DNA of 59,543 nucleotides, taken from the NCBI GenBank assembly GCA_963805825.1, contig CAWDVO010000027.1:1-59543 (forward strand), written 5' to 3'. The position numbers and the translations under genes are program-made. The notes beneath the pieces are model-generated. The model had not been told where the DNA came from and ran no database searches. It saw only the letters and a program-made list of their open reading frames with translations. Source of the stretch: Candidatus Brocadiaceae bacterium. Its GTDB lineage: Bacteria; Planctomycetota; Brocadiia; SM23-32. Below are positions 17,341-18,378 of this stretch, piece by piece; within the stretch, counting starts at the first letter, position 1, and every line of letters begins with the position of its first letter.

Positions 17341-17445
17341 GTGTCACGCCTCTTCGAGCGGGAGCAGGGGAACGCGCAGAACGCAAAGCTACCAGCCGCG
17401 CGGCGGTGCGTCAAACGATGCCGGAAAGGGACTCGCACAACGTGA

Positions 17446-17474
17446 TTGTATACGCCTGGCGTCTTGTGTATAAT
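17446..17474 (+). promoter_or_regulatory. sigma70 promoter: -35 TTGTAT, 17-bp spacer, perfect -10 TATAAT
   Basis: TTGTATACGCCTGGCGTCTTGTGTATAAT lies in the divergent region between sulfatase 2 and the HTH-Cys regulator pair. Confidence 0.5.
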
Positions 17475-17537
17475 GCGGCCCGTCACAGACAGGTATCCTG
17501 GGGGGTTCAGGACGTGGCGGGAAACGACTCAGGGCCG

Positions 17538-17960
17538 ATGGACGACGGCGGACTGCGGCTGGACGACCTGCGCGGCGTCCGCGAGGCGCTCGACAAGACG
17601 CAGAGCGAGATGGCCGCGTTGCTGAGCATCTCCACCCGGGCGGTGCAGAGCTACGAGCAGGGCTGGCGCCCCGTGCCGCCGCACGTGCGCAAGATGGCGG
17701 CCTTCCTGCTCTGCGTCAGCCGGCGGCACAAGGGACGCGTGGTGCCGTGCTGGCAGATCCGCAAGTGCTCGCGCCGCGATCGGGCCGCCTGCCCCGCGCA
17801 TCAGTTGGGCGAGGGCGAGCTGTGCTGGCTGGTCACCGGCGACGCCTGCCCGCTGGGCGAGGAGGCCTCCGCCGAGGACAAGGCCGAGCGCTGCGCCAGT
17901 TGCCCTGTCCTGATGGAGCGCCTGCGCGCCCACGCCGACCTGGAGGCTGACCGTGGCTGA
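17538..17960 (+). CDS. XRE-family HTH regulator with novel Cys-rich C-terminal domain (paralog 1)
   Basis: HTH region LSISTRAVQSYEQGWRPVP. C-terminal PCW-x3-C-x6-CPA-x8-LCWLVTG-...-C-x2-CP. The alternative ORF start at 17406 is probably a 5' over-extension. Confidence 0.6.
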   Translation: MDDGGLRLDDLRGVREALDKTQSEMAALLSISTRAVQSYEQGWRPVPPHVRKMAAFLLCVSRRHKGRVVPCWQIRKCSRRDRAACPAHQLGEGELCWLVTGDACPLGEEASAEDKAERCASCPVLMERLRAHADLEADRG

Positions 17961-18378
17961 CGCTGCGCCCAGCGGAGAGGCGAGGTGCGTGCCGGCCTTT
18001 ACGGACCTGCGCGCCATCCGCGGCCTGATGGGCAAGAGCCAGAGCCAGATGGCCCGCCTGATGGGCATCTCGACCCGCGCCGTCCAGAGCTACGAGCAGG
18101 GCTGGCGCGGCGCCCCGCCGGCCGTGCAGAAGCACGCCATGCTGCTGCTCTACCTGCACCGCCGCCGCTCGGGCATCCCGGCCCGGCCGTGCTGGGAGGT
18201 CTGCGAGTGCGGCGAGGAGGTGCGCCGGGACTGCCCGGCCTATCTGCTCCAGGAAGGCCACCTCTGCTGGCTGGCGACGGGCAACCGCCTGCCCGGCACG
18301 AAGGGGCGCGCCTCGTGGCCGGCGAAGGCCAGGCAGTGCGAGAAGTGCCCGGCCATGCGGGAGAGGCTGAGGCTCTGA
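17953..18378 (+). CDS. XRE-family HTH regulator with novel Cys-rich C-terminal domain (paralog 2)
   Basis: GTG start overlapping the paralog-1 stop by 8 nt. MGISTRAVQSYEQGWRGAPP HTH, then PCWEVCECGEEVRRDCPAYLLQEGHLCWLATG...QCEKCP. Confidence 0.6.
   Translation: MADAAPSGEARCVPAFTDLRAIRGLMGKSQSQMARLMGISTRAVQSYEQGWRGAPPAVQKHAMLLLYLHRRRSGIPARPCWEVCECGEEVRRDCPAYLLQEGHLCWLATGNRLPGTKGRASWPAKARQCEKCPAMRERLRL

Follow-up and report, generated by a model that had tools for sequence, protein, structure and literature searches.

Tandem XRE-type regulators carrying the cysteine-rich two-CW domain in a Brocadiaceae bacterium, and a palindromic candidate operator of their family

The one-component regulators with iron-sulfur (Fe-S) centers, namely FNR, IscR, NsrR and RsrR of the Rrf2 family, WhiB, SoxR and ArnR, are small DNA-binding proteins with a cysteine-ligated sensor, and the chemoreceptor zinc-binding (CZB) domain is a four-helix bundle with a zinc site made of three histidines and one cysteine. 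A further cysteine-rich module, the 'two-CW domain', is already catalogued as the NCBIfam family NF045718 but is functionally blank, with no functional description or paper found in the searched literature. The stretch of DNA analyzed here, hereafter the window, comprises 59,543 nucleotides of contig CAWDVO010000027.1 from a Candidatus Brocadiaceae bacterium, and encodes two adjacent regulators, open reading frames (ORFs) A and B, each of which combines an N-terminal XRE-type helix-turn-helix (HTH) domain with a C-terminal cysteine-rich domain. We propose, as the best explanation and one that we consider somewhat probable, that ORF-A and ORF-B are duplicated one-component regulators of the XRE plus two-CW type, which act as dimeric repressors on a palindrome characteristic of their family and receive a signal through the domain of six to seven cysteines.

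A first-pass annotation of this DNA had held that the C-terminal domain could not be assigned to any family, and this claim has to be revised. A profile of the C-terminal domain alone recovered 678 matches at E <=1e-3 from 1.84 billion representative proteins, and family relatives scored 34.3-93 bits on NF045718, several of them (93, 91, 53, 50 and 45 bits) above its curated cut-off of 35 bits. Since relatives drawn from the same domain profile pass this cut-off, the C-terminal domains of ORF-A and ORF-B are, by profile comparison, divergent, sub-threshold members of the two-CW family. The domain is all-helical and spans about 60 amino acids (aa), and 197 copies of it define the framework C-W-x4-C-x7-C-x10-C-W-x6-C-x14-C-x2-C, in which six cysteines are present in at least 190 copies and a seventh, following a 'G-t-x' motif, in 164 (83%). 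Both CW dipeptides and all six invariant cysteines are present in ORF-A and ORF-B, and the six are kept at >=90% in 41 family members; the seventh occurs in ORF-A, as part of 'TGDAC', and is found neither in ORF-B nor in a single-copy relative at the locus L011. The six-cysteine pattern that had been read from the two proteins is therefore conserved, while its spacings are corrected to PCW-x4-C-x7-CP-x9-CW ... C-x2-CP. The earlier statement that the domain is not WhiB, Rrf2, SoxR or zf-HC2 holds: no Pfam model matches the cysteine-rich region, the two-CW profile matched no chain in the PDB, and a fold search was likewise without a match. Membership in the FNR, Rrf2, WhiB and SoxR families was rejected on the lack of any sequence or fold match. 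A literature search covering two-CW, NF045718, cysteine-rich chemoreceptor domains and XRE-type Fe-S regulators recovered no relevant paper and none using the name.

A survey of 146 new representative two-CW proteins revealed 86 XRE-HTH proteins of about 125-200 aa, 29 short stand-alone versions, and 13 full-length methyl-accepting chemotaxis proteins (MCPs) with the domain at their extreme C-terminus, two of which bear tandem copies, along with three MCP fragments. Other architectures include P0083, in which the XRE-HTH and two-CW domains are followed by a sigma-54 AAA+ module and HTH_8, P0180, which joins a receiver domain (REC) to the two-CW domain, and P0045, an MCP with both a CZB and a two-CW domain. 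The gene contexts of one stand-alone protein and of the sigma-54 fusion held nothing informative. As every fusion partner is a signal-transduction module, these architectures argue for the two-CW domain being a signaling module with a sensing or signal-modulating role rather than one of simple dimerization; the sensor role suggested in the first-pass annotation is thus plausible in light of the fusions to chemoreceptors, the sigma-54 AAA+ module and the receiver domain. This attachment to chemoreceptors, a sigma-54 activator and a receiver domain, together with the occurrence of the domain on its own, is the usual pattern of signaling modules and sits poorly with an alternative in which the two-CW domain is a structural zinc-binding or dimerization module, comparable to the zinc domain of MqsA, and ORF-A and ORF-B are constitutive autorepressors devoid of sensing. 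Such an alternative draws on the fact that small cysteine-rich domains often hold structural zinc, on the fit of six invariant cysteines to a Zn2Cys6 site, on the HigA/MqsA type of the HTH, and on the presence of the family palindrome in front of HigBA-like toxin-antitoxin operons with a similar antitoxin helix (see below). However, the distribution of the domain is almost confined to anaerobic lineages and it bears no likeness to a known zinc-finger family or fold, and we regard the structural reading as unlikely.

The N-terminal XRE/HigA-type HTH, which a long helix links to the C-terminal domain, has the lambda-repressor-like five-helix fold of XRE/HTH_3 domains. The Pfam model HTH_3 (PF01381, cut-off 23 bits) matches ORF-B above its cut-off (Table 1) and ORF-A slightly below it (22.3 bits, E 1.3e-4), and both proteins are also matched by HTH_31. 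They share the HTH segment ISTRAVQSYEQGWR, and the signature S-x-RA-x-QSYEQGWR is invariant in all 41 aligned members, ORF-A and ORF-B included; the QSYEQGWR subfamily of XRE plus two-CW regulators is delimited in the present analysis. A family scan with one genome per GTDB species yielded 199 QSYEQGWR loci. The 80 that were retrieved come from Planctomycetota (Brocadiia and Phycisphaerae), Kiritimatiellia, Victivallales, Desulfobulbia (including Electrothrix), other Desulfobacterota, Acidobacteriota, Myxococcota and Spirochaetota, and the genomes that bear them belong nearly all to anaerobic lineages. Given their shared recognition helix, ORF-A and ORF-B probably recognize the same sites, as homodimers or heterodimers.

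Upstream of QSYEQGWR-subfamily genes we noted a conserved 15-bp inverted repeat, TACCACA-N-TGTGGTA (TACCACAATGTGGTA). When k-mers were counted without bias in the 280-nt regions preceding 87 family genes and in 365 control stretches of the same loci, TGTGGTA/TACCACA was found upstream in 41 of the 87 loci as against 5 of the 365 controls, with overlapping 8-mers completing the palindrome. Likewise, matches to at least 12 of the 15 operator positions occurred in 35/87 upstream regions versus 5/544 background windows, and perfect copies were seen in Acidobacteriota, Victivallales, Syntrophobacteria and Desulfarculaceae. A position weight matrix (PWM) picked out 63 strong sites over 864 kb, of which 43 fell within 330 nt upstream of the gene, a zone of about 3.6% of the sequence, although this count is partly circular as the matrix was trained on a subset of the sites. 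An independent test in the reverse direction started from 120 metagenome contigs picked solely for the exact palindrome: 15 of them have a full-length family gene (E <=1e-36) no more than about 320 nt away, and in a blastp cluster of 15 such genes the palindrome precedes the start by a median of 55 nt. In total, this test gave 22 scan hits, about 7 of which are HTH-only HigA-like antitoxins. In 16 other contigs the palindrome is a coding coincidence in rpsP, where it encodes YHIVV, and 8 contigs represent HigBA-like operons with the antitoxin helix AVRSWEQGTRRP. This overlap suggests that an antitoxin-type HTH, along with its operator, was borrowed by the two-CW regulators or is common to both groups.

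We also observed that the exact palindrome TACCACAWTGTGGTA starts two-gene HigBA-like operons, with an antitoxin of about 105 aa, at L135 (7591-8276) and likewise at L143, L153, L169, L193 and L203. An identical operator in HigBA-like loci, along with weak NCBIfam HTH matches to MqsA, HipB, NadS and RstR, could be taken to mean that the pair in the window is itself a toxin-antitoxin or mobile-element regulator module. We consider this extremely improbable: ORF-A and ORF-B have one and the same architecture, HTH plus two-CW, which leaves no toxin-like partner, the flanks are occupied by sulfatase and trpA/trpB genes, 50,697 phage and 72,556 plasmid records yielded no match, and across phyla the gene occurs on chromosomes in single copy. 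An origin of this kind is effectively excluded by the missing toxin partner, the lack of a phage or plasmid match and the gene content.

The operator typically fills the spacer of a TTGnnn-17-TAnnnn promoter, such that its final two bases open the -10 hexamer, as in TTGACA-tatataCCACAACGTGG-TATTGT at L048. A TTGnnn hexamer (a -35 of at least 4/6) is present 16-18 nt upstream of the terminal TA at 32 of 53 gene-oriented sites, as against 9 of 32 sites in the opposite orientation. Since the operator lies inside the core promoter of the regulator's own gene, a geometry typical of repression by promoter occlusion, we infer negative autoregulation of this kind, extended to neighboring or divergent operons. 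In the mechanism that we envisage, proteins of the ORF-A/ORF-B type would bind TACCACA-N-TGTGGTA as dimers, and their default action would be repression by occluding their own sigma-70-type promoter, with control of adjacent or divergent operons in addition. The two-CW domain would be the signal-receiving module, holding a cysteine-ligated metal center for which Fe-S would be favored over zinc, and the redox, occupancy or ligand state of this center would alter DNA binding. An Fe-S or other redox-active center is a guess, which we prefer as the most economical one on account of the number of cysteines, a distribution restricted to anaerobes and fusions of the sensor type. Neither the operator nor the promoter architecture nor the set of domain partners appears in the searched literature.

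In the window the likely promoter of the pair (Table 1) combines a -10 hexamer matching the consensus at 6/6 positions with a -35 hexamer matching at 3/6, and the block GTGTATAATGC is kept in the two orthologous loci L001 and L010. The sequence of the near-consensus sigma-70 promoter described earlier, TTGTAT-17-TATAAT, is thus present. The poor -35 accounts for its absence from an automated promoter scan. The spacer of the pair promoter ends in TTGTG before the TA of the -10, resembling the family half-site, TGTGG before TA, and L011 has TTGCGC-16-TATCTT with TTGTGG before the -10, which is a perfect right half-site; we read these half-site remnants as probably derived from the family operator by degeneration. 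TCGCACAACGTGATT, a candidate degenerate operator, ranks third by PWM among the 59,529 positions of the window, and an identical site ranks first among 16,475 positions in L001. The second-best window match, at 22033 (TGGCACGATGTGGCT), lies inside an ORF (21769-23019, minus strand) whose C-terminal part carries an HNH_2 endonuclease domain, and has probably arisen by chance. The only TGTGGTA heptamer in the window, at 10109, corresponds to chance level. On the other side of the control region, the blocks GCTACCAGC and GTGCGTCAAACG are conserved in the window, L001, L010 and L011, and from this conservation TTGACG-17-TAGCTT is probably the promoter of the divergent sulfatase gene; in its place the automated scan gave TATACA-16-TACAAT on the minus strand (17472-17445). 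Autoregulation within the window, together with control of the divergent sulfatase promoter, is thus possible on weak support, and the main targets of the pair may lie elsewhere in the genome.

Several observations weigh against the proposed explanation. The candidate site TCGCACAACGTGATT agrees with the operator consensus at 10 of 15 positions and is absent from L010, and nowhere in the 59.5 kb of the window does an operator come within 3 mismatches of that consensus. Many of the loci that support the operator are related Desulfobulbia, and their counts are not independent events. Both window copies of the domain fall slightly below the NF045718 cut-off, and the joining to a receiver domain in P0180 would suit a two-CW domain that serves in output or interaction just as well as one that senses. 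The proline after the 'CP' cysteines is only partly conserved across the 197 domain copies; a heme-regulatory 'CP' motif was set aside on this ground.

The first-pass annotation had described the two genes as tandem paralogs encoding XRE-HTH regulators with a conserved multi-cysteine C-terminal domain, and this is supported by their identity (50% over 125 aa, E 7e-39), their HTH_3 matches and the conservation of the cysteines. They lie in different frames and, as had also been observed, overlap by 8 nt, with the sequence GTGGCTGA placing the GTG of ORF-B over the stop of ORF-A. For ORF-A alternative starts exist at ATG 17538 (140 aa) and at GTG 17406, which gives the longest ORF. We take GTG 17514 as the likely start in view of the 148-aa homologs that begin with 'MA....' at the equivalent position and of its location 3' of the conserved -10 box, TATAAT (17469-17474), which falls within the longer GTG 17406 form. 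The 141-aa length of ORF-B and its 'AD' N-terminus are kept at L001 and L010. Long spurious ORFs are common at the 68% G+C of the window; ORF-A and ORF-B have homologs in many samples to support them. A stretch of six G at 17500-17505 differs by one base in L001 and alters the frame of the 5' extension of the 162-aa protein predicted there (P0001). This extension, upstream of or across the conserved -10 box, is probably non-coding. The tandem pair was found solely in the window, L001 (88% identity) and L010 (80%), the other 84 loci being single-copy. ORF-A and ORF-B thus represent a tandem duplication, specific to their lineage, of a one-component transcription factor, and tandem pairing was rejected as a trait of the family.

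Both genes on the opposite strand are sulfatases, as had been noted, and both are of the cysteine type, with the nearer one, sulfB, split over two frames: one frame covers positions 1-139 of Pfam Sulfatase, and another covers 141-301 together with SGSH_C. L011 has an intact sulfB ortholog (77-86% identity), and frame breaks are also seen in the L001 orthologs; the split in the window reflects an indel error of the assembly or else a pseudogene. Orthologs of sulfA are found at L010 (88% identity) and L011 (74%). The order in this clade is Band_7, sulfA and, where present, sulfB, followed by the divergent regulator pair, with trpA and trpB downstream on the opposite strand. L011, from a metagenome-assembled genome labelled Brocadiaceae, has sulfA and an intact sulfB, and divergent to them lies a single-copy regulator with 47% identity to ORF-A and 51% to ORF-B. 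Since this single-copy regulator is also divergent from orthologous sulfatases, the linkage predates the duplication, yet it is limited to one clade. This retention of the divergent layout in the window, L001, L010 (sulfA only) and L011, despite the 47-51% identity of the L011 regulator, and the candidate operator within the shared 173-bp intergenic region could suggest that ORF-A and ORF-B are dedicated regulators of the sulfatases, for example coupling their expression to sulfatase maturation. A sulfatase lies within 6 kb at 6 of the 87 loci, however, and the remaining 81 have none nearby; sulfatase co-occurrence was accordingly rejected as a family trait. The functional tie to sulfatases and formylglycine maturation implied earlier is therefore not general, the orthologous divergent arrangement being seen only in the clade of the window and at L011. 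Moreover, the four syntenic loci represent a single clade, their sulfatases sharing 74-88% identity, family members adjoining unrelated genes have the identical recognition helix, and chance adjacency is likely as planctomycete-type genomes are generally rich in sulfatase genes. We hold the dedicated-regulator reading to be decidedly improbable; the sulfatase proximity is a clade-specific arrangement and offers no evidence of a sulfatase-maturation sensor.

The neighbors of family members at other loci (Table 1) share a suggestive if loose thread of O2-sensitive metalloenzymes and sulfur or one-carbon (C1) handling, with each class coming from one or a few lineages. At the loci with cooS-cooC-MTHFR-fhs (CO dehydrogenase and methyl-branch genes) the intergenic region holds one to three near-perfect palindromes. 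The recurrence of sulfur-handling neighbors (metY-like genes, mnmA with MiaB/RimO-like genes, Thi4/ThiS, AhpC, and the sulfatases in the clade of the window and at L011) would fit a metal-free thiol or persulfide switch, through which the family would monitor sulfur or sulfide status and control sulfur genes, including the sulfatases of this clade. However, hyp, cooS/cooC, fdhA, MltA and recA lie off the sulfur theme, each neighbor class is restricted to one or a few lineages, and known persulfide sensors use two cysteines rather than six or seven invariant ones; we judge such a switch to be quite improbable.

Returning to the signal-receiving repressors proposed above, a more far-reaching version can be offered tentatively, as a possibility that we rate below that of the core explanation: the XRE plus two-CW proteins would form an unstudied metallo- or redox-sensing class with a new cofactor-binding sensor fold of six to seven cysteines, in common with chemoreceptors and sigma-54 activators, and the QSYEQGWR branch would read a universal operator over O2-sensitive C1, hydrogenase-maturation and sulfur genes across Planctomycetes-Verrucomicrobia-Chlamydiae (PVC) bacteria, Desulfobacterota and Acidobacteriota, the window holding a duplicated and possibly heterodimeric version beside sulfatases. 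Should the two-CW domain bind a redox-active cofactor, the few bacterial regulators based on Fe-S or thiols would gain a new sensor fold, and gene regulation would become more accessible in poorly studied anaerobes, namely Planctomycetota, Kiritimatiellia, Victivallales and Desulfobulbia, including cable bacteria. The domain could also explain an unrecognized input to chemotaxis receptors. The occurrence of one operator across phyla, inside the core promoter, renders the family directly testable, and its regulons could be predicted. The pair in the window, for its part, supplies two more family members.

Table 1. Features of the window discussed in the text, and gene neighbors of family members at other loci
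Feature	Position or loci	Strand	Remarks
ORF-A, XRE-HTH plus two-CW regulator	17514..17960	+	likely start GTG 17514; 148 aa; seven Cys
HTH of ORF-A (helices 1-3) with long connecting helix	17568..17726	+	includes invariant STRAVQSYEQGWR
Two-CW domain of ORF-A	17745..17912	+	residues 70-125 (140-aa numbering); NF045718 E 1.3e-7, 31.9 bits
ORF-B, paralog of ORF-A	17953..18378	+	GTG start; 141 aa; without the seventh Cys
HTH of ORF-B	18007..18117	+	Pfam HTH_3 27.5 bits, E 3e-6
Two-CW domain of ORF-B	18187..18354	+	residues 79-134; NF045718 E 2.2e-6, 28.0 bits
Likely promoter of the pair	17446..17474	+	TTGTAT (17446-17451), 17-nt spacer, TATAAT (17469-17474)
Candidate degenerate operator TCGCACAACGTGATT	17433..17447		perfect inner core CAC-N3-GTG; overlaps the -35 hexamer
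Candidate promoter of divergent sulfatase gene	17386..17414	-	TTGACG, 17-nt spacer, TAGCTT
sulfB, Cys-type sulfatase (CTPSR), divergent neighbor	15866..17340	-	two reading frames; frame shift near 16935-17015
sulfA, second sulfatase (CGPAR)	14435..15763	-	442 aa; Pfam Sulfatase E 1.6e-57
mnmA, MiaB/RimO-like radical S-adenosylmethionine enzyme (MTTase), cinA, recA	31 Desulfobulbia loci		downstream; dgkA divergent
cooS-cooC-MTHFR-fhs	7-8 Victivallales-type loci; metagenome-assembled genomes with the divergent cluster: L034, L043, L047, L067, L068, L072, L082, L087, L089		divergent; fdhA-type genes nearby
hypC/D/E, hydF or hycI	4 loci		
metY-like Cys/Met pyridoxal-phosphate enzyme	5/15 metagenome loci and L081		
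znuABC and Thi4/ThiS	L006, L007		
AhpC	L008		
MltA	L002		

Certain other features of the surrounding sequence deserve mention. The 590-nt gap between ORF-B and trpA contains an imperfect hairpin at 18586-18728 (element about 18554-18769), with 63-nt arms of 75% complementarity and a 17-nt loop, which has no second copy in the window and is missing from the orthologous gap of L001; it may be an insertion resembling a miniature inverted-repeat transposable element (MITE) or a large terminator structure. An Rfam scan of 17300-19100 gave sub-threshold matches only, among them one to the Acido-Lenti-1 RNA just upstream of the hairpin (18537-18575, minus strand; 27.6 bits against a gathering threshold of 37, E 9e-4). 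The 929-aa ORF at 18973-21762 (minus strand) is a high-G+C artefact, the real genes being trpA (about 18973-19780) and, in another frame, trpB (19776-21095), as in L001 and L010. Beyond the sulfatases, the 666-aa ORF at 12360-14360 (minus strand), whose N-terminal part is a Band_7/SPFH domain, is represented in L010 by two separate genes of 264 and 364 aa, which points either to a gene fusion or to an error of frame in one assembly or the other.

Among known systems, NF045718 has the same two CW dipeptides and cysteine positions as the window copies, which align to model positions 2-74 with about 56 residues and are thus shorter than the model. The CZB domain resembles the two-CW domain in being a small module, of metal-thiolate type, on the cytoplasmic end of chemoreceptors and in other signaling proteins, but the two are unrelated in sequence, and the two-CW domain has six or seven cysteines and no conserved histidine ligands. 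Antitoxins of the HigA2/MqsA type, with a COG2944-like 'WEQG-R-P' helix, have a similar recognition motif, and the palindrome of HigBA-like operons (TACCACAWTGTGGTA) is identical; they differ from the pair in the window, which has no toxin partner, carries a C-terminal two-CW domain in place of the N-terminal zinc domain of MqsA, and is chromosomal rather than mobile. In the Fe-S one-component regulators the ligands are three or four cysteines as opposed to six or seven here, and the HTH of the two-CW family is XRE/HigA-like, with no sequence or fold kinship to them. The cysteine-ligated sensor that we propose for these small DNA-binding proteins would nevertheless parallel theirs, as would the palindromic operators in core promoters and the links to anaerobic and metalloenzyme genes, a comparison of mechanism and not of membership.

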